A model generated the notes under the pieces. The model was not told the origin of the DNA, ran no database searches, and saw nothing but the letters and a program-made list of their open reading frames with translations. A stretch of DNA of 34,558 nt from positions 1 through 34,558 of the forward strand of contig CAUPPN010000001.1 of assembly GCA_963513115.1 (NCBI GenBank). Direction: 5' to 3'. Below are positions 16,406-29,507 of this stretch, piece by piece (the stretch's first letter is position 1; each line of letters opens with the position of its first letter). Both the position numbers and the translations under genes were made by a program. The stretch is from an uncultured Eubacteriales bacterium (GTDB lineage: Bacteria; Bacillota; Clostridia; TANB77; CAG-508).

Positions 16406-16996
16406 ATGAAAAAAAAAATAATAGATAATGCAGAAATAAAAAAAGAAAGTAATAATATATATAGAGAAAATAATATAAATAGTAATATAGAAAATAAAAA
16501 GAAGAATAAAAATAAAAAAATAATATATATATCTAGTATGGGTGGTCACTTAAAAGAATTATTAATGCTTGAAAAACTTTTTGATAAATATGATACAACA
16601 ATAATTACAGAAAAAACTGATGCAACTAAAAATCTAAAAGAAGATATTTTAAAAAAGCATAAAAATACTAAAACATATTATTTAGAATATGGTACAAAGC
16701 ATAATATATTTCCATACATTGGTATATTTTTAAAAAATATATTTCTTTCATTTAAATATTTTAAAAAAGTAATGCCAGATATAGTAATAACAACAGGAAC
16801 ACATACAGCTGTTCCTATGTGTTTTATTGCAAAAATTTTTAATAAAAAGGTTATATATATTGAAACATTTGCAAGTGTAACAGGCGGAAGCTTAGCAGGT
16901 AAAATAGTATATCCAATAGCAGATGAGTTTATTGTACAATGGAAAGAAATGCTTAAAAAATATCCAAATGCTAAATACTTAGGAGGTATATTTTAG
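16406..16996 (+). CDS. Alg14-like (PssD/Cps14F-type) glycosyltransferase subunit
   Basis: IIYISSMGGHLKELL glycine-loop region and ...TTGTHTAVPMCFIAK... are typical of Alg14-like proteins. Overlaps the start of its Alg13-like partner by 1 nt (TAGTG). Confidence 0.7.
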   Translation: MKKKIIDNAEIKKESNNIYRENNINSNIENKKKNKNKKIIYISSMGGHLKELLMLEKLFDKYDTTIITEKTDATKNLKEDILKKHKNTKTYYLEYGTKHNIFPYIGIFLKNIFLSFKYFKKVMPDIVITTGTHTAVPMCFIAKIFNKKVIYIETFASVTGGSLAGKIVYPIADEFIVQWKEMLKKYPNAKYLGGIF

Positions 16997-17499
16997 TGGT
17001 ATTTGTATCAATAGGAACACAAGATAAGGAATTTGATAGATTAATTGAATATATTAAAAGATTAAAAAAAGAAAATATATTAAAAGATAATTTGATTATA
17101 CAAAGTGGTATAACAAAAGTTGATTTTGATGACGAAAAAATGGATAATGAATATAATGTTGAATCATTTTCTTTTATTAATAGTGAAAAGATGAAAGAAT
17201 ATATATCAAAAGCAGATTATGTAATAATACATGGAGGAGTAGGAACAATTATACAATGTATAATGCAAAACAAAAAAACAATTGTAGTTCCAAGACTTAA
17301 AAAACATTTTGAACATGAAAATGATCATCAATTAGAAATCGCAAATAAGTTTAAAAAATTAAAACTAATTGAAGTTGCAAATGATTATGATGAATTAAAA
17401 AATATAATATTAAATATTGATAATATAGAATTTGAAAAATATATATCTACAAATGATGAATTTGTAGCAAAGCTAGATGAAATTATACAAGATATGTAA
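16996..17499 (+). CDS. Alg13-like (PssE/Cps14G-type, Glyco_tran_28_C) glycosyltransferase catalytic subunit
   Basis: GTG start overlapping the upstream stop. MVFVSIGTQDKEFDRL and IIHGGVGTI segments are typical of the MurG C-terminal-like domain. Confidence 0.75.
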   Translation: MVFVSIGTQDKEFDRLIEYIKRLKKENILKDNLIIQSGITKVDFDDEKMDNEYNVESFSFINSEKMKEYISKADYVIIHGGVGTIIQCIMQNKKTIVVPRLKKHFEHENDHQLEIANKFKKLKLIEVANDYDELKNIILNIDNIEFEKYISTNDEFVAKLDEIIQDM

Positions 17500-17518
17500 T
17501 TAAAGATAGGAGCATATA

Positions 17519-18586
17519 GTGATTAGTGAATTAATAATAACAATAATACTTGCAAGTTTTGGAACATATGTATTTGTTCCAATTACAATGAAACTTGCAA
17601 GGAAATATGATGTTTTAGACTATCCAAATGAAGATAGAAAAAAGCAAAAAATTCCAATGCCAAGATTGGGAGGCCTTGCTATAATAATAGGCTTTGCAAT
17701 TGCAATGGCATATATTATAATTACAAATTTAGTATGTAAGGAAATAGTTTTTGAATCAGAAAATCTTAAATTATTTGTAGGTATGCTATTAGGAGCAATT
17801 GTAATATCTATAACAGGATTTTTAGATGATAAGTATGATATATCTGCAAGACAAAAGTTTATAGGGCAGATAATAGCAGCTGTGATTGTTATGGCATTTG
17901 GTCTTAGAATAACTAAAATATCAATACCATTTACAACAAATGCATGGATACTTCCAAACTGGTTTTCATATTTTATAACATTGCTATGGATAGTAGGAAT
18001 TACAAATGCAATAAATATTATAGACGGGCTAGATGGATTAGCTACTGGAATTGTTTTAATAGCAGCTTTTTCACTTGCTATAGTATTTTATTTAAGTTCT
18101 TCACCATTACTTTCAATATTTATAGCTGTTGCAATAGGTGGAGGATCACTTGGCTTTATACCATATAATAGGTTTCCTGCAAAAACATATTTAGGTGATA
18201 TTGGATCTAACTTCTTAGGTTTTATGCTTGCTACAGTATCATTATTAGGTGTTGGAAAAACATATGTAGTAATAGTAATGGCACCAGTATTAATACTTGG
18301 CATACCAATTTTTGATACATTATTTGCAATGATAAGAAGAGCGGTAAAGAAAAAAAGACTTTCTGCAATGTTTGAAGCAGATGGAAATCATATACACTAT
18401 AGGCTTATAAAAAAAGGATATTCAGTAAGACAAACAGCAAGAATGCTCCAAGGGATTACACTTGCATTTGCATTATTTGCAATAATTGCAATAGATGGTG
18501 GATTACTTAAAAGTCTTACATATACTATACTTGTTTGTACATTAGTATATATAGGTATTGATGATATCTTTCCTAAAAATGAATAG
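17519..18586 (+). CDS. Polyprenyl-phosphate N-acetylhexosamine-1-phosphate transferase (MraY/WecA/TagO family)
   Basis: GTG start with a TAGGAG RBS. About 10-11 TM segments. Motifs FLDDKYD and NAINIIDGLDGLATG. Confidence 0.85.
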   Translation: MISELIITIILASFGTYVFVPITMKLARKYDVLDYPNEDRKKQKIPMPRLGGLAIIIGFAIAMAYIIITNLVCKEIVFESENLKLFVGMLLGAIVISITGFLDDKYDISARQKFIGQIIAAVIVMAFGLRITKISIPFTTNAWILPNWFSYFITLLWIVGITNAINIIDGLDGLATGIVLIAAFSLAIVFYLSSSPLLSIFIAVAIGGGSLGFIPYNRFPAKTYLGDIGSNFLGFMLATVSLLGVGKTYVVIVMAPVLILGIPIFDTLFAMIRRAVKKKRLSAMFEADGNHIHYRLIKKGYSVRQTARMLQGITLAFALFAIIAIDGGLLKSLTYTILVCTLVYIGIDDIFPKNE

Positions 18587-19953: not shown

Positions 19954-20637
19954 ATGGAATTATTAAGGGTAGAAAATTTATGTAAGCATTATGGTAAAGA
20001 AGGAAAAAGTAATTTTGTAAAAGCAGTAGATAATGTATCTTTTACTGTATCAAAAGGTGAATTTGTTTCAATAGTTGGTAAGTCAGGATCAGGTAAGTCT
20101 ACACTATTACATATGTTAGGAGGAGTAGATAAGCCAACTTCTGGAAAGATATATATAAATGGAGTAGATATATATTTACTTAAAGAATCTAAGCTTGCAG
20201 AATTCAGAAGAAGGGAAGTAGGACTTATTTATCAATTCTATAACCTACTTCCAATACTTAATGTAGAAGAGAATATAACTCTTCCTATACAATTAGATGG
20301 CAAAAAGGTAGACAAAAAGAAGTTAGAAGATATACTTAAAAAACTTGGGCTAGAAGATAAGAAGAAAAATTTACCAAATGAGTTATCTGGAGGACAAGAA
20401 CAAAGAGTTGCAATAGCAAGAGCACTTGCAAATGAACCAAAGGTTATACTTGCAGATGAGCCTACAGGAAATTTAGATACTAAAAATGCAAGAGAAATAA
20501 TGGAACTTTTAAAATATACAAATAAGGAATTAGGACATACTATTATTATGATAACACATGATGATGATTTAGCATTAGAAGCAGATAGAATGATAACAAT
20601 AGAAGATGGAAAGATAGTAGAAGATAAGGAAGTATAA
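19954..20637 (+). CDS. ABC transporter ATP-binding protein (MacB/FtsE/BceA-like class)
   Basis: Walker A GKSGSGKST, signature LSGGQEQR, Walker B ILADEPTG and an H-loop in ITHD. Confidence 0.9.
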   Translation: MELLRVENLCKHYGKEGKSNFVKAVDNVSFTVSKGEFVSIVGKSGSGKSTLLHMLGGVDKPTSGKIYINGVDIYLLKESKLAEFRRREVGLIYQFYNLLPILNVEENITLPIQLDGKKVDKKKLEDILKKLGLEDKKKNLPNELSGGQEQRVAIARALANEPKVILADEPTGNLDTKNAREIMELLKYTNKELGHTIIMITHDDDLALEADRMITIEDGKIVEDKEV

Positions 20638-23987: not shown

Positions 23988-24016
23988 TTGATTAATTTAC
24001 ATAATTATGTTATAAT
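23988..24016 (+). promoter_or_regulatory. Near-consensus sigma-A promoter with an extended -10
   Basis: TTGATT (23988-23993), a 17-nt spacer, then TATAAT (24011-24016), with TG at 24008-24009. Confidence 0.7.
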
Positions 24017-24023
24017 AATAACA

Positions 24024-24038
24024 GTTACATTTTGTAAC
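24024..24038. promoter_or_regulatory. Palindrome at the predicted transcription start (candidate operator or 5' hairpin)
   Basis: GTTACA-ttt-TGTAAC, beginning about 8 nt after the -10 box. Confidence 0.4.
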
Positions 24039-24074
24039 ATTTAATTATTAACTTATTTAGGAGGCCAGAAAAAA

Positions 24075-24293
24075 ATGACAGAAGAAAATGAAAAAGGTGT
24101 AAGAAGAGTAATCGAACTAGACTTTGTAGAAAAGAAAATGACAAGCGTATCTGAAAAAAGAGAGCTACAACCAATTGAAACAATTTCAAGTAGTTACACT
24201 GAATCTAATGGTGTATTATACAAAGACAAGTTATATTTACTTTTAAAAGACAAAAGCGGCAACATCAAATTAAAAATAATAGATGTTGACTAA
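24075..24293 (+). CDS. 72-aa hypothetical protein with its own promoter and terminator
   Basis: AGGAGG RBS 10 nt upstream. The ORF is bracketed by a consensus promoter and a strong terminator. No family recognised. Confidence 0.55.
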   Translation: MTEENEKGVRRVIELDFVEKKMTSVSEKRELQPIETISSSYTESNGVLYKDKLYLLLKDKSGNIKLKIIDVD

Positions 24294-24316
24294 CACTTAA
24301 TAATTAAATGGAAATT

Positions 24317-24339
24317 AGGATGCTACTGCATCCTTTTTT
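24317..24339 (+). terminator. Rho-independent terminator
   Basis: AGGATGC / GCATCCT stem with a TACT loop and a 6-T run. Confidence 0.8.
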
Positions 24340-24365
24340 CATGTATTTTTTATTTGTCTTTAATA

Positions 24366-24394
24366 TTGAAAGAATAACTTGTATATGATATTTT
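24366..24394 (+). promoter_or_regulatory. Candidate promoter placing the transcription start at or next to the abiEi-like ATG (possible leaderless mRNA)
   Basis: TTGAAA (24366-24371), a 17-nt spacer, then TATTTT (24389-24394), with TG at 24386-24387. The ATG at 24401 is 7 nt after the -10 box and has no Shine-Dalgarno sequence. Confidence 0.4.
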
Positions 24395-24400
24395 ATATTT

Positions 24401-25000
24401 ATGAATAATGAAGATAAAATACTTGAGAAAATGAAGGAAAATAATGGTATAATAACAACAAAAGAAGTAATTGAAATGGGAATAAGTTCAAAAACCATAA
24501 CAAGACTTGTAAGGAAAGATAAGCTAAGAAAAATAACAAAAGGTATGTATGTAGACAAAGAAAATTTTAATGACCCATATTTTGAAAAATTAGCAAGATG
24601 CAGACAGGGAATTTATTCACACGAGAGTGCTTTTTATTTATATGGACTAATTAAAAAACCAAATGTATACCAAATAACTATTCCAAGTCATTATAATACG
24701 AGAATAATAACACATGATGAGAATGAGTTTTTTTATCTTAAAAAGAATATATGCATTTATGGAATAGAAAAAATAGAAACATTAGAAAAAAATGAAGTAA
24801 ATGTATATAATGTTGATAGAACAATATGTGATATATTACATGATAGTAAGAGAATAACAGAAAATAGATTAAATATGCTTTTTTCAGTATATTTAAATTA
24901 TGAAAATAAAAATATTGAAAAAGCATTTGAATATGCAAAGATTTTAAATGTAGAAGACAAATTAGAATATATGTTAAAAAGAAAAGGAAAAAATGTATGA
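24401..25000 (+). CDS. AbiEi-family protein (type IV toxin-antitoxin antitoxin / transcriptional regulator domain)
   Basis: N-terminal winged-helix segment NNGIITTKEVIEMGISSKTITRLVRKDKLRKITKGMYV followed by IYSHESAFYLYGL...ITIP...VYNVDRTICDIL, the pattern typical of AbiEi_4-type proteins. The stop overlaps the next start (ATGA). Confidence 0.75.
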   Translation: MNNEDKILEKMKENNGIITTKEVIEMGISSKTITRLVRKDKLRKITKGMYVDKENFNDPYFEKLARCRQGIYSHESAFYLYGLIKKPNVYQITIPSHYNTRIITHDENEFFYLKKNICIYGIEKIETLEKNEVNVYNVDRTICDILHDSKRITENRLNMLFSVYLNYENKNIEKAFEYAKILNVEDKLEYMLKRKGKNV

Positions 25001-26061
25001 GAACACTAGTATATTATTATGATAGAAAGAAAGTAGAAGCTAAAGTAGTTGAAAATATTTTTAGAGGATATAGTGTAGAAAAATTATTTTCAATATATGA
25101 TGTATTATATAATAGAAATAGAAGTGAAAAGGAACTTAAGAAAAGAAGAAACGAATTATTAGAAAAACAAATTGATAAAAAAATTGCAGAAGAAAAGGTA
25201 AATTATCCAAATGAAGAAATACAAATTATCTTTTTTGGGACAGATAAGATAGTAAGAGATAGTATAAAATATGTAAAAAACAAATATAATAATATAAAAA
25301 TAAAGTTAATATTTGATACATATGAAGGTTTAATATTTGATCAATATGAAATGAAAAATTTTTCTAAAATGTTAGAACTTGCTAAAAATAATACTGTTGA
25401 AAAAATATATTTTTTCAAAAAGAGTATTGCAAAAGCATATAAGAAAATGGGATATAATGCGGGATATATAATGCAAAATTTTAATTTAGATAAAGATGCA
25501 TATGAAGATAGACTTAAAGATAGAAAAAATGATTTATCTAAAAAAGAAAAAATAGTAATTGGTGCATATCCTTCATCAAATTATTGGAATAGTAATATAT
25601 ATAATATATACAGCGTTTCAAGTTTTTTTGAAAATGCAATTTTAAAATGTAAGATACAATCAGAAAGGGACATAGATTTTATTAAAACATATAATATAGA
25701 TTCAACACCGGTAAGTTTTTCAAATGAAAATATTGATGCATTAATTTCTAACATTATAGAAAGTGATGTTGTACTTGACTTGGATTTTACCGCGAATAAT
25801 AATATAAATTTCTTGATAGCTGCAACATTTGGAATACCATGCTTAATTGGTAATAATAATGACCTATTTATTGATTTACCATTTATATATAGTGATAAAA
25901 TAGTTACAAATACTGAAGATAATCCATATGAAAATTCTGAAAAGATAAAAAATATAATAGAAAATTTAGACTTAACTGATTTAAAAGAAAAGCTAATAAT
26001 ATGGAAAAAAGAATATGACAAATTGCAAAAGCAAAACTTAGAAAAGGTTATAGGGGAGTAG
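24997..26061 (+). CDS. GT-B glycosyltransferase-like protein, paralogue of 26067-27278, lacking both EX7E glutamates (probably non-catalytic)
   Basis: Aligns by eye with the next ORF: AKAYKKMGYNAGYIMQNFN vs AEFYKNRGYNAYYFSNNVN; KIVIGAYP vs KIKIGLYN; FFENA in both; FGIPCLIGNNNDLF vs SGVPCIIGNNNDYF; EDNPYE vs EDDPFE. The EX7E position reads A...I (nt 25789-25842). Confidence 0.55.
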   Translation: MRTLVYYYDRKKVEAKVVENIFRGYSVEKLFSIYDVLYNRNRSEKELKKRRNELLEKQIDKKIAEEKVNYPNEEIQIIFFGTDKIVRDSIKYVKNKYNNIKIKLIFDTYEGLIFDQYEMKNFSKMLELAKNNTVEKIYFFKKSIAKAYKKMGYNAGYIMQNFNLDKDAYEDRLKDRKNDLSKKEKIVIGAYPSSNYWNSNIYNIYSVSSFFENAILKCKIQSERDIDFIKTYNIDSTPVSFSNENIDALISNIIESDVVLDLDFTANNNINFLIAATFGIPCLIGNNNDLFIDLPFIYSDKIVTNTEDNPYENSEKIKNIIENLDLTDLKEKLIIWKKEYDKLQKQNLEKVIGE

Positions 26062-26066
26062 TACTT

Positions 26067-27278
26067 ATGAAAAAGGCGTTTAGAAAACTCAAAAAATACT
26101 TAAAAGAAAATATGAATAATGATGGATACATATACAAAAAGGTAAATAATGTATATCATAAATTAAGTGCTAAAAAATGGGAATTTCAAGAAAGTAGAAG
26201 AATTAAAAGGGAAAATGGATCATTGTATCTAGCAAAATATAATAGACAAGTAGTAGCAAATGCTTGTAAATTAATTAAAAAAACGAATTATAATTATATT
26301 GCATTATATAATCCAACATGGCTTGGTGTTGCTAACTCAACTAAAGGATTATTTGAAAGTTGTATACCACTTGAAAAGTTAAAAAATAGAAAATTAAGAA
26401 AAAAGGTATTAGATGAAATTGTTAAAAATAATAAGATAGAAACAGTAATATTTTCACAAATGGTAGATGGTTGGGAAGATCTAATAAAAGAGCTTCATAG
26501 AGCGAAAAAAGAACTTAAAATAAAAGTAATATGGCATGCAAATAATTATGAAACAATATCTGATTATACATGGAACCTTAAAAAAGAGTTAATAAGTATG
26601 TATAATGATGGATATGTATGTGCATTAGGATTTGTAAAAAAGACAATGGCAGAATTCTATAAAAACAGGGGATATAATGCATATTATTTTTCAAATAATG
26701 TTAACTCCAATATAAATCAAAATGAAAAAGAAAATAATAAAGAAGAAAAAAGAAAAGAAGAATACAAAGACAAAGATAAAAAAATAAAAATTGGATTATA
26801 TAATGCTCATAGCAGAGAAATAAAAAATATATTTACCCAAATGTTAGCAACTAAATTCTTTGAAAATGCTGTTGTGGATATTGTGCCATCTAGTGAGCAA
26901 ATTGAAGAATATGCAAAAATGAATAATATGAAATATACAAATGTATCATATTTCATACCAACAGATGAATTAATGGAAAGAATAAAACAAAATGACATAA
27001 ATGTATATGCTACATTTACAGAATGTGCACCAATGTTTCCTATGGAAAGCTTTGAGTCAGGCGTTCCATGTATTATTGGTAATAATAATGACTATTTTAA
27101 AGGTAGTAAATTAAGAGATTATGTTTGTGTAAATAGAGAAGATGATCCATTTGAAATATATAATAAGATAAAAGAAGTTATAGAAAATAAAGAAGAAGTT
27201 ATGGAATTATATAAAAAATGGAAAGTTAATTTTAATATAGAAAATGAAAAATTAGTTAATGAATTTATTAATTCTTAA
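26067..27278 (+). CDS. GT-B fold (GT4-like) glycosyltransferase
   Basis: GGGGAG RBS. EX7E motif TECAPMFPMESFESGVPCI (nt 27018-27071). N-terminal Rossmann-like half (ETVIFSQM..., IKVIWHANN). K/E/N-rich linker between the halves. Confidence 0.65.
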   Translation: MKKAFRKLKKYLKENMNNDGYIYKKVNNVYHKLSAKKWEFQESRRIKRENGSLYLAKYNRQVVANACKLIKKTNYNYIALYNPTWLGVANSTKGLFESCIPLEKLKNRKLRKKVLDEIVKNNKIETVIFSQMVDGWEDLIKELHRAKKELKIKVIWHANNYETISDYTWNLKKELISMYNDGYVCALGFVKKTMAEFYKNRGYNAYYFSNNVNSNINQNEKENNKEEKRKEEYKDKDKKIKIGLYNAHSREIKNIFTQMLATKFFENAVVDIVPSSEQIEEYAKMNNMKYTNVSYFIPTDELMERIKQNDINVYATFTECAPMFPMESFESGVPCIIGNNNDYFKGSKLRDYVCVNREDDPFEIYNKIKEVIENKEEVMELYKKWKVNFNIENEKLVNEFINS

Positions 27279-27350: not shown

Positions 27351-28325
27351 ATGGGTAAAATGGAAAATGCAGTGTTATTTTCATTATCTGCAAGTAAACA
27401 ATTAAGTGAAAAAATTGCAAAAAAGTTAGGAAAAAAATTAGGAGATATAACTATAAAACATTTTGCAGATGGAGAAATAATCGTAGAATTAGAAGAATCA
27501 GTAAGACATAAAGATGTATATTTAATACAATCAACATCAAATCCTGTTTCTAATAATTTAGTTGAATTACTAATTGCAATAGATGCATGCAAAAGAGCAT
27601 CAGCAGAAACAATAAATGTAATTATTCCATATTTTGGATATGCAAGACAAGATAGAAAAGCAAGACCTAGACAACCTATTACTGCAGGGCTTGTAGCAAA
27701 CTTAATTGAAGCGGCAGGTGCCACATCTGTTACAACAGTTCAAATTCACTCAAGACAAACAATTGGATTTTTTGATATTCCTGCAGATGACTTAGAAGTA
27801 ATTGGAATATTATCAACATATTTTAAAAGAAAAAAATTAAAAGATTTAGTAGTAGTTTCACCAGATCATGGTGGAGTTAAAAGAGCAAGAGATATGGCAG
27901 AAATATTAGGATGCCCGATAGCTATAATTGATAAAAGAAGATTAAAAGCAAATGAAGCAGAAGCAATGAATTTAATAGGTAATGTAGAAGAAAAAAATGT
28001 AATAATAATAGATGATATGGTAGATACAGCAGGAACTATTGTATCTGGAGTAAAAATGTTAAAAGAAAACGGAGCAAAAGATATCTATGTTGCAATAGGA
28101 CATCCTGTTTTATCAGGACCTGCAATTGAAAGAATAAAAAAATCAGATATTAAAAAGTTTATATGTACAGATACAATTGAGCTACCAGAAGAAAAGAAAA
28201 TAGATAAAATAGAAGTTGTAACAGTTTCTAAAATGCTTGCAGATATAATTGAAGGCCAAATAATGGGTAATAGTGTAAGCGAAATATTATTAAAATATAG
28301 GAAAAGAGACTTTATTGAAAAATAA
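27351..28325 (+). CDS. prs: Ribose-phosphate pyrophosphokinase (PRPP synthetase)
   Basis: AGAGG RBS 5 nt before the ATG at 27351 (the tracked ORF extends to a GTG at 27315 that has no RBS). Motifs FADGEI, YFGYARQDRKARPRQPITA, GFFDIP and the PRPP loop VIIIDDMVDTAGT. Confidence 0.93.
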   Translation: MGKMENAVLFSLSASKQLSEKIAKKLGKKLGDITIKHFADGEIIVELEESVRHKDVYLIQSTSNPVSNNLVELLIAIDACKRASAETINVIIPYFGYARQDRKARPRQPITAGLVANLIEAAGATSVTTVQIHSRQTIGFFDIPADDLEVIGILSTYFKRKKLKDLVVVSPDHGGVKRARDMAEILGCPIAIIDKRRLKANEAEAMNLIGNVEEKNVIIIDDMVDTAGTIVSGVKMLKENGAKDIYVAIGHPVLSGPAIERIKKSDIKKFICTDTIELPEEKKIDKIEVVTVSKMLADIIEGQIMGNSVSEILLKYRKRDFIEK

Positions 28326-28355: not shown

Positions 28356-28381
28356 GAAGTGCAAATTAGCACTTCTTTTTT
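28356..28381 (+). terminator. Rho-independent terminator after prs
   Basis: GAAGTGC / GCACTTC stem with a 6-nt loop and a 6-T run. Confidence 0.8.
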
Positions 28382-28426
28382 ATTAAAAAAATACTTTACA
28401 TAACTATAGCAAAATAATAAAAAATA

Positions 28427-28435
28427 TGGTATAAT
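28427..28435 (+). promoter_or_regulatory. Extended -10 promoter element (TGgTATAAT) with no good -35
   Basis: TGGTATAAT at 28427-28435. The nearest TTTACA lies 29 nt upstream, which is too far. Confidence 0.35.
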
Positions 28436-28456
28436 ATATAATATATAGCGTATGCT

Positions 28457-28511
28457 ATGTAGTTAATATCTTTTTAAATGATTATTTAAAAAGTATGGAA
28501 ATGTAGTTAAT
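28457..28511. repeat. Direct repeats flanking a perfect 10-bp inverted repeat (DR-IR-DR)
   Basis: ATGTAGTTAAT occurs at 28457-28467 and 28501-28511, each preceded by GTATG. Between them lies CTTTTTAAAT-gatt-ATTTAAAAAG at 28470-28493. Confidence 0.7.
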
Positions 28512-28597
28512 TGGTATTTAAAGGAGAAGAAAATGATTAAAAAACTCAAATATTTAAAACTTAAGCAATAGGTTTTGTTTTAAAAATTATATAAATG

Positions 28598-28606
28598 TGT
28601 TATAAT
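28598..28606 (+). promoter_or_regulatory. Extended -10 promoter element (TGtTATAAT) upstream of the 28709 cassette
   Basis: TGTTATAAT at 28598-28606, about 100 nt before the AAGGAG RBS of ORF 28709. Confidence 0.4.
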
Positions 28607-28708
28607 TTTTCATACAAACTTATTAAATCCTGTAATTATTTTTAAAGGATGAAAGAACATTAAAGGTATTTAGGACAAATTATAGAAGCTACAAAGGAGA
28701 AGAGTATA

Positions 28709-29167
28709 ATGACTAGGAAGAAAAATAACTGCTTAAATGTAAAAATGCCAAAAGAAGTTTTTACAAACAATCAGCTTAGATGGATTAAAAGACAAAATTT
28801 TACAAAACAAGAAATATTAATGATTTTCAGCAAATATGCGAAAGATTTTCTTGATTACAATGCAATATTTCCAAATCTTTCAGTACCATTTAAAGAAGAA
28901 ACAAAATGGTTAAATGTTTTAAAAGAAATTATTAAAAATTATGAAGAAAATGAAGCAAAAGGTATAATAGTTCAAACAATAGAGGATGAATGTAGAATAG
29001 AAATTAAAAACTTCATGCAAAGAGAAGGAATAACAGGGTTAAATAGCTTAAGAAACACTCTTGCTGATGCTTGTAGATTAATATATATAGCAGAGGTATA
29101 TGGATATGCTAGAAGACCAGAAGTAAGATTGGATGTTATAATTGATTGTATAGCTAAAGATTATTAA
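28709..29167 (+). CDS. 152-aa hypothetical soluble protein
   Basis: AAGGAG RBS, and codon bias like its neighbours. No family recognised. Confidence 0.6.
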   Translation: MTRKKNNCLNVKMPKEVFTNNQLRWIKRQNFTKQEILMIFSKYAKDFLDYNAIFPNLSVPFKEETKWLNVLKEIIKNYEENEAKGIIVQTIEDECRIEIKNFMQREGITGLNSLRNTLADACRLIYIAEVYGYARRPEVRLDVIIDCIAKDY

Positions 29168-29177
29168 GGAGCATATT

Positions 29178-29507
29178 ATGACTGTTTCAATATTGCTGGA
29201 TTTACTTATAATAATGCTAGCTACAATTATATATATTATAGTGAGTATTCTTGCAATACTATTCCGTACATCTTATATACTGGATCTTGAAATGGAATAT
29301 AAGAGGGTGGGAGTACTATTTTTATTTAATTATATGCTACCATTTACTTATACAGGTTGTATGTTGATTGCAAAGGCACTAACAAGACCAAAAATACTTT
29401 TAAGGTCGGCAGAAATATCAGTAATCATTTGGGTAATCACAATTGCGATTGCATATTTTATGCAAGCTGATGAAATTAAAAGAAAGAAAAAAAGAAAAAT
29501 TAGCTAA
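29178..29507 (+). CDS. 109-aa membrane protein (3 predicted TM segments, K-rich C-terminus), function unknown
   Basis: AAGGAG RBS, 10 nt after the upstream stop. Hydrophobic segments LLDLLIIMLATIIYIIVSILAILF, VGVLFLFNYMLPFTYTGCMLIA and ISVIIWVITIAIAYF. Confidence 0.6.
   Translation: MTVSILLDLLIIMLATIIYIIVSILAILFRTSYILDLEMEYKRVGVLFLFNYMLPFTYTGCMLIAKALTRPKILLRSAEISVIIWVITIAIAYFMQADEIKRKKKRKIS

Follow-up and report, generated by a model that had tools for sequence, protein, structure and literature searches.

The AbiE systems, in which the antitoxin AbiEi is paired with the toxin AbiEii (a DUF1814 protein), have been described as type IV toxin-antitoxin (TA) systems and have recently been proposed to be of type VII (PDB 6Y8Q; Dy et al. 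2014, PMC3985639; Beck et al. 2020, PMC7319586), and orphan copies of AbiEi have been noted in Mycoplasma mycoides genomes (PMC8562856). Here we analyze an abiEi gene in a stretch of 34,558 nucleotides (nt) from an uncultured Eubacteriales bacterium (GenBank assembly GCA_963513115.1, contig CAUPPN010000001.1; hereafter the window), where it is followed by two genes, P2 and P3, that encode proteins of the GT-B glycosyltransferase fold, and by prs. Like the AbiEi of an AbiE system, the product of this gene has the typical length, combines a winged helix-turn-helix (wHTH) with a C-terminal domain, matches AbiEi references over its full length, and is encoded by a first cistron that overlaps the next gene by 4 nt. 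Unlike in an AbiE system, GT-B genes rather than a DUF1814/AbiEii gene follow abiEi, the antitoxin loop is altered, the promoter and leader carry neither a long inverted-repeat operator nor a Shine-Dalgarno sequence, and the locus sits in a chromosomal core context and not in a mobile element. Because the locus lacks three features that define an AbiE system, namely a neighbouring DUF1814 toxin gene, the conserved antitoxin loop, and the operator, it should not be classed as one. It shares the absence of an adjacent toxin with the orphan AbiEi genes of M. mycoides; in contrast to those, across two species the window orphan is fixed and under strong constraint, it is translationally coupled to housekeeping genes, and it is part of a larger toxin-less clade in which a P-type ATPase recurs as a second partner. 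The locus most likely represents an orphan or exapted antitoxin-family regulator and not a new defence mechanism. At the level of titles and abstracts, we found no description in the literature of a pairing between AbiEi and glycosyltransferases.

The open reading frame (ORF) at 24401..25000 (+ strand, 199 amino acids) is a full-length two-domain member of the AbiEi family (COG5340/Pfam AbiEi_4). Its product matches Pfam AbiEi_4 over residues 13-51 (38.9 bits, with the cutoff at 25; E 9e-10), the PADLOC AbiEi profile PDLC02225 over residues 1-192 (E 1.2e-47) and, by phmmer, the solved AbiEi of Streptococcus agalactiae (6Y8Q) over residues 5-192 (E 2.5e-20). The TGA stop codon of abiEi overlaps the ATG of P2 in an ATGA at 24997..25000 (+ strand), and an AAGGA Shine-Dalgarno sequence for P2 (24985-24989) lies inside the 3' end of abiEi. 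A preliminary description of this DNA had assigned the ORF to AbiEi and had pointed out that its stop overlaps the next start; the profile hidden Markov model (HMM) matches and the match to 6Y8Q agree with the assignment, and the overlap is confirmed and kept in further loci of the species (L001-L003, L015) as well as in a sister species (Logan contig L009). No match to AbiEii/DUF1814 was found in the window or in L001-L003, L009, and L015, a search that did not cover the rest of the genome.

To gauge the constraint on abiEi we used ratios of nonsynonymous to synonymous substitution (dN/dS) between the window and L009. The values were 0.075 for abiEi, 0.31 for P2, 0.19 for P3, and 0.05 for prs and, within abiEi, 0.025 for the wHTH/N-terminal half and 0.112 for the C-terminal domain, all of them approximate because dS between the window and L009 is ~1. 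The relative encoded by L010 has the same recognition-helix stretch, GISSKTITRLVRK..LRKITKGMYVD. Moreover, the AbiEi 90% cluster comprises 41 variants within the species, and the 14 of normal length that we compared showed 15 variable sites and not a single truncation (0/14). Given the low dN/dS and the integrity of all 14 population variants compared, abiEi is not a decaying relic; it is under strong purifying selection, most of all in the wHTH.

A change affects the loop that follows the conserved YSHE[TS]ALY helix. In ~65 relatives this loop reads [TSC]-[DE]-R-[DTE]-P. The window clade has I-KKP or I-KEP at this place, a loop shortened by one residue; in the window itself (LIKKP, versus the T-D-R-D-P type) both the acidic residue and the arginine are gone. 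In L010 the loop reads EVEP. The loop aligns to D85-E86-I87 of S. agalactiae AbiEi, the joint mutation of which abolishes AbiEii complex formation and antitoxicity (bioRxiv 10.64898/2026.01.19.700257). As judged from these alignments, the AbiEi clade of the window has lost the conserved (D/E)-R antitoxin loop.

The relatives of this AbiEi place it among genes without a toxin partner. The sister species (L009) has the same layout as the window (GIY-YIG gene, micro-gene, abiEi, P2, P3, prs), including the 4-nt overlap, with 84% identity in AbiEi and 74% in P3. The abiEi gene of L010 (61% identity) lacks a toxin partner and is followed after 9 nt by a P-type cation ATPase gene; that of L012-14 (50% identity) is likewise toxin-less and upstream of a homologous P-type ATPase gene, both genes being frameshifted. 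In an unbootstrapped neighbour-joining tree, the glycosyltransferase-linked AbiEi nests inside the ATPase-linked toxin-less clade, and the sister group is canonical. All five sampled outgroup relatives (P0124, P0126, P0142, P0164, and P0177) are classical AbiEi-AbiEii pairs, four of the five with a 4-nt overlap. In the more distant P0155 group (31% identity), abiEi once more lacks a toxin and precedes a P-type ATPase gene. A scan of IMG/VR for close relatives of AbiEi returned nothing.

Several observations concern these relatives in their own right. Toxin-less AbiEi-like genes lie directly upstream of homologous P-type cation ATPase genes (~40% identity) in three lineages (L010:2577-3323; L012:6474-9801, also L013 and L014; L067:3001-6532, also L068), with 61%, 50%, and 31% identity to the window AbiEi, respectively; the L067 abiEi promoter keeps an inverted repeat with 17-nt arms. 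The products of these ATPase-linked genes may be AbiEi-derived regulators of a cation pump. In L012-L014, the genes for AbiEi, the P-type ATPase, an epimerase, AIM24, and phosphate acetyltransferase are broken by frameshifts that are reproducible across three samples, and this recurrence suggests either gene decay or a systematic assembly artefact. (An alternative genetic code was considered for the truncated AbiEi and ATPase genes and rejected, the lesions being +1 frameshifts and not in-frame TGA codons.) In L011:5910-11487, a serine recombinase gene, a canonical AbiEi-AbiEii pair, and a 539-amino-acid ORF lie between fragments of 65 and 127 amino acids of a Mn-catalase/CotJC-type gene, just after cotJA-cotJB; this looks like a mobile, possibly sporulation-excised intervening element with AbiE cargo.

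The two genes that follow abiEi, P2 (24997..26061, + strand, 354 amino acids) and P3 (26067..27278, + strand, 403 amino acids), are related to each other, with 30% identity over 242 amino acids in BLASTP (E 2e-16) and a probability of 100% (E 1.6e-41) when their family profiles are aligned with hhalign. AlphaFold2 models (mean confidence, pLDDT, of 81.5 for P3 and 83.9 for P2) were compared with the PDB using Foldseek; the top 50 matches listed for each protein had the GT-B fold and were nearly all glycosyltransferases (BshA, MshA, GlgM, OtsA, SenB; probability 1.00, E 1e-7 to 3e-9), and no nucleotidyltransferase was among them. Thus, as far as profiles and predicted structures indicate, P2 and P3 are paralogous GT-B-fold proteins and neither is a nucleotidyltransferase. 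The preliminary description had reached the same view by recognizing two paralogous GT-B proteins and seeing no nucleotidyltransferase signature in either, a view that the BLASTP, hhalign, and structure comparisons bear out.

P3 and the retaining GT4 enzymes of the GT-B fold (BshA, MshA, GlgM, and TarM/SdgB-type enzymes) have more in common than the fold. At least 460 relatives of P3 occur in uncultured gut and rumen Clostridia, and an alignment of 17 sequences at 47-78% identity contains at least 85 invariant columns, among them R250, K253, and E319-x7-E327, so that P3 keeps the EX7E motif typical of retaining GT4 enzymes together with basic phosphate-binding residues. Unlike the GT4 enzymes, P2 and P3 have no significant sequence match to a solved structure: the P3 profile matched no PDB sequence, and the Pfam Glycos_transf_1 match of P3 is below threshold (23.6 versus 26.4 bits, E 4e-5), with no Pfam match at all for P2. 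(Note that many homologues of P3 carry a precomputed PF00534 match.) At the columns aligned to P3, P2 lacks the Arg/Lys and EX7E residues, and it is less similar to its relatives (59%, 42%, and 29-38% identity) than P3 is to its own (74%, 57%, and 47%). P3 is therefore probably the catalytic subunit, with residue roles that we assign by analogy, and P2, which evolves fast and is missing the catalytic-motif residues, fits a degenerate and probably non-catalytic partner. Pairs of a catalytic and a non-catalytic GT-B protein exist, such as GtfA-GtfB of serine-rich-repeat adhesin glycosylation, and by analogy P2-P3 resembles an active enzyme with a pseudo-enzyme partner; the two would then presumably form a complex.

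We asked in what company P2 and P3 are found by scanning one genome per GTDB species for a sequence pattern, which yielded 49 species-level loci that were then subjected to ORF calling and HMM searches, with AbiEi sought within 7 kb. P2 lies immediately upstream of P3 in ~45 of the 49 loci, and in 41 of them the two genes follow a gene (f2) for a 640-amino-acid HAD-like protein. The surroundings of this triad encode GT2 and GT4 transferases, DUF6020 membrane proteins, TagGH-like ABC transporters, RmlA/RmlB, a pyruvyl transferase, and cell-wall amidases; the P2-P3 loci are a cell-wall glycopolymer module. The usual HAD-like partner is absent near the P2-P3 copy of the window. Of the 49 loci, a single one (L015) has an AbiEi homologue, and it belongs to the species of the window itself (95% identity); linkage of P2 and P3 to prs occurs without AbiEi in L004/5, L056, and L058. 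Furthermore, the start of P2 and its N-terminal pattern, M-x-T-[IL]-x-x-Y...K...E...N[MI]F[KR], are conserved in genomes that lack AbiEi. The conservation of the P2 N-terminus without AbiEi argues that the start at 24997 is ancestral and that AbiEi was added upstream of a pre-existing operon. A remnant of AbiEii within the N-terminus of P2 was also considered, and was rejected since this region aligns with AbiEi-less homologues.

Two further features of the P2-P3 family are worth recording. In two Eubacteriales species represented by metagenome-assembled genomes (L056:896-3172 and L058:6448-8727), the homologues of P2 and P3 are split at the same positions (P2 into 168+205 amino acids, P3 into ~138+64+202 amino acids) and are followed by prs; the split may reflect pseudogenes common to both species or genes whose domains are truly separate. 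In addition, window positions 16406-18586, 6-8 kb upstream of P2-P3, encode an Alg14-like plus Alg13/GT28_C-like split glycosyltransferase and a TagO/WecA-type phosphosugar transferase. In L028 and L031, the HAD-like/P2/P3 triad is directly preceded by homologues of the Alg14/13 pair (f56/f57), a hint that the split glycosyltransferase and the triad belong to one pathway.

The region upstream of abiEi contains a candidate promoter at 24366..24394 (+ strand), with TTGAAA and TATTTT separated by a 17-nt spacer and an upstream TG (TG-n-TATTTT); the -10 element ends 6 nt before the ATG. A block that spans 24359-24400 is conserved between the window and L009, and the sequence farther upstream has diverged, with indels. 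In canonical AbiEi-AbiEii relatives, an inverted repeat with arms of 18-25 nt straddles the -10 element in four of five cases and is followed by a strong Shine-Dalgarno sequence (GGAGG or AGAGG), an arrangement that matches the inverted-repeat operators described at the promoters of AbiEi and Rv2827c (PMC7319586). By comparison, no inverted repeat of at least 10 nt is present in 24321-24410, a cut-off that a shorter operator could have escaped, and no Shine-Dalgarno sequence precedes abiEi in the window; the L010 promoter also has neither an inverted repeat of at least 10 nt nor a Shine-Dalgarno sequence. The abiEi promoter has lost the canonical inverted-repeat operator and so provides no sign of autoregulation in the known mode. 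Two leads on an operator were rejected. Phylogenetic footprinting of the promoters of the window, L009, L010, and L012 gave shared 10-14-mers that were no commoner than in shuffled controls (13-58% of the shuffles gave such matches), and an inverted repeat across the start codon (24390-24402/24408-24420), as read by eye, is not conserved in L009 and is attributed to chance in AT-rich DNA.

The starts of the toxin-less abiEi genes are themselves unusual. In the window (24384-24403), L009 (1412-1431), and L010 (2560-2579), no Shine-Dalgarno sequence is present, and 5-8 nt separate the ATG from the end of a -10-like hexamer. Because the -10 element of the window ends 6 nt before the ATG and a Shine-Dalgarno sequence is absent, the abiEi mRNA may be leaderless, and sequence features suggest that the same may hold for the mRNAs of the other toxin-less abiEi genes.

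Two intrinsic terminators bracket the genes under study. One is a hairpin at 24317..24334 (+ strand; AGGATGC-TACT-GCATCCT followed by TTTTTT, a 7-bp stem with four GC pairs), which terminates the upstream 72-amino-acid micro-gene, insulates the AbiEi operon, and is also kept in L009, L015, and L001. The other follows prs at 28356..28375 (+ strand; GAAGTGC-AAATTA-GCACTTC followed by TTTTTT); note that the terminator scan listed this hairpin on the - strand and that reading the + strand reveals the T-run. The scan found no + strand terminator between 24401 and the end of prs, as the preliminary description had also claimed for the intergenic regions up to prs. Since these are the only + strand terminators flanking abiEi and prs, the transcription unit is abiEi-P2-P3-prs. 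Its last gene, prs (27351..28325, + strand), encodes ribose-phosphate pyrophosphokinase, that is, phosphoribosyl pyrophosphate synthetase (Pribosyltran_N, E 6e-51); its start was taken as the ATG at 27351, which is preceded by an AGAGG Shine-Dalgarno sequence, and the gene is called as 324 amino acids in L001-L003. The window has ~26% G+C with no detected compositional break, and every long gene is on the + strand. The neighbours are core envelope and division genes, namely those for PBP1, CysS, FemAB, FtsH, the Alg14/Alg13-like split glycosyltransferase, the TagO/WecA-like transferase, and a sortase, together with ABC/FtsX, FtsEX, and two PcsB-like hydrolases; the flanks are thus not the accessory-looking ones that had been supposed. 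A PF13304 'putative AbiEii' match at 19954-20637 was rejected as a toxin, as the gene codes for an ordinary ABC ATPase with an FtsX permease as its partner.

We think it probable that a toxin-less AbiEi was exapted as a stand-alone DNA-binding regulator and captured as the first cistron of a housekeeping glycosyltransferase-prs operon. According to this explanation, P2-P3-prs would be the older housekeeping unit, the P2/P3 pair serving cell-wall glycopolymer synthesis. AbiEii would have been lost earlier, in the wider AbiEi clade, the other members of which precede a P-type cation ATPase gene; within that clade the toxin-binding loop would have been lost and the winged helix kept near-invariant, with loss of the canonical operator at the promoter of the window. 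In the lineage of the window's species and of one sister species, both gut Clostridia and close relatives of each other, a toxin-less abiEi would then have been captured directly upstream of P2, and its 3' end remodelled such that it carries the P2 ribosome-binding site and overlaps the P2 start. As a result, the abiEi promoter would drive P2-P3(-prs), and translation of these genes would be coupled to that of abiEi. The loss of the loop, the loss of the operator, and the near-invariant winged helix together make a stand-alone DNA-binding regulator the most likely role of AbiEi; we infer that AbiEi binds DNA and that it may regulate the abiEi-P2-P3-prs operon. This is compatible with the second of two possibilities raised by the preliminary description, an AbiEi-family regulator linked to surface-glycan genes: purifying selection on the wHTH and the promoter-proximal position of the cistron speak for it, and the absence of the canonical operator speaks against it. 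Other points also weigh against our explanation. The long inverted repeat is absent from the very promoter that AbiEi would regulate and present in four of five canonical relatives; no motif common to the promoters of the window, L010, or L012 goes beyond chance; the tree is unbootstrapped and the dN/dS values approximate; the catalytic roles given to P2 and P3 are based on conserved motifs and models; and, as the AbiEii search covered the loci and not the rest of the genome, there is still room for an antitoxin that acts in trans.

An orphan antitoxin retained for immunity, which would act in anti-addiction by neutralizing AbiEii-type nucleotidyltransferase toxins, whether from other parts of the genome or from incoming mobile elements or phages, with its position next to the P2/P3 pair incidental, is the alternative to which we give most weight, though we regard it as unlikely. 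The full two-domain architecture is kept with a constrained C-terminal domain (dN/dS 0.112), AbiE modules are mobile in related Clostridia (the copy in L011 adjoins a serine recombinase), AbiEi relatives are present on plasmids and phages, and orphan AbiEi genes have been reported in mycoplasmas (PMC8562856). However, the (D/E)-R loop of ~65 relatives, which is homologous to the antitoxicity loop of S. agalactiae AbiEi, is charge-reversed and shortened here, the strongest constraint falls on the DNA-binding domain and not on the C-terminal domain, and the toxin-less state is old, being common to the L010 and L012 relatives. That the abiEi ORF is an inert passenger, persisting solely since its promoter and coupled translation express P2-P3-prs, strikes us as very unlikely. 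The terminator at 24317-24334 does leave the abiEi promoter as the obvious promoter of the operon, and the ATGA coupling is present; yet selection on a passenger of this kind would act against nonsense and frameshift mutations alone and not against missense changes, whereas the observed dN/dS of abiEi (0.075, and 0.025 in the wHTH) is below the values of P2 and P3.

The least credible of the alternatives, and one to which we assign hardly any probability, is that the P2/P3 pair replaces AbiEii in a toxin-swapped AbiE-like TA or abortive-infection module, acting for instance through toxic or phage-blocking glycosylation that AbiEi restrains. This was the first of the two possibilities in the preliminary description. 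In its favour are a 4-nt translational coupling identical to that of canonical AbiEi-AbiEii pairs and the constraint on AbiEi. It is contradicted by the census, in which homologues of the pair lie mostly in cell-wall polysaccharide clusters and have an AbiEi neighbour in 1 of 49 loci; put differently, the pair is near-universal without AbiEi in this bacterial group (48/49 species loci) and usually lies within glycan-synthesis clusters. The start and N-terminus of P2 are older than the association with AbiEi, the pair is co-transcribed with the essential prs, and the pattern scan indicates a single copy in the genome of the species. Neither P2 nor P3 has a PADLOC match or a match to the Pfam GT4-conflict family (PF20706), no relative of P3 was found on IMG/VR viral contigs, and the neighbourhood consists of core envelope genes and is not a defence island. 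The glycosyltransferases are thus not supported as the toxin of AbiEi.

Bolder versions of a regulatory role can also be entertained. The toxin-free AbiEi clade as a whole could constitute a dedicated transcription factor for envelope genes, acting on the glycosyltransferase pair here and on the P-type cation ATPase in relatives, a proposal that we consider rather improbable. A more extreme version of the idea of an exapted transcription factor is that AbiEi's C-terminal domain acts directly on P2/P3.

Other parts of the window are noted here for completeness. Directly upstream of the AbiEi operon, positions 23988-24334 hold a stand-alone gene of 72 amino acids (24075-24293) that has a strongly matching promoter (TTGATT and TATAAT with TG, 17 nt apart), an AGGAGG Shine-Dalgarno sequence, and its own terminator; the version in the sister species (L009) has 89 amino acids, dN/dS is ~0.3, and the product matches no Pfam, NCBIfam, or PADLOC family. 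An uncharacterised block near the beginning of the window (248-7394) contains six co-directional ORFs, five of which have no Pfam match; the product of the remaining one (1202-3142, 646 amino acids) shows a weak match to a type II/IV secretion ATPase. A 330-nt AT-rich non-coding stretch (28376-28708) separates the prs terminator from a pair of genes at 28709-29507 (152 and 109 amino acids, no family matches); it is a stretch with several promoter-like sites and no Rfam match; an Rfam scan of the whole window found nothing.

If the orphan AbiEi works as a regulator, the locus would clearly exemplify how a TA/abortive-infection antitoxin was domesticated after loss of its toxin, and the steps of domestication would be traceable: the toxin-binding loop lost, the operator lost, and the wHTH kept. 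Were the clade indeed an envelope transcription factor, a regulator formerly of phage defence would tune a glycan that is a potential phage receptor. The locus also carries a caution, in that solitary AbiEi genes should not be annotated as defence systems. Finally, the P2/P3 pair, usually together with a HAD-like protein, points to an uncharacterised cell-wall glycan module that is widely conserved among low-GC uncultured gut Clostridia.

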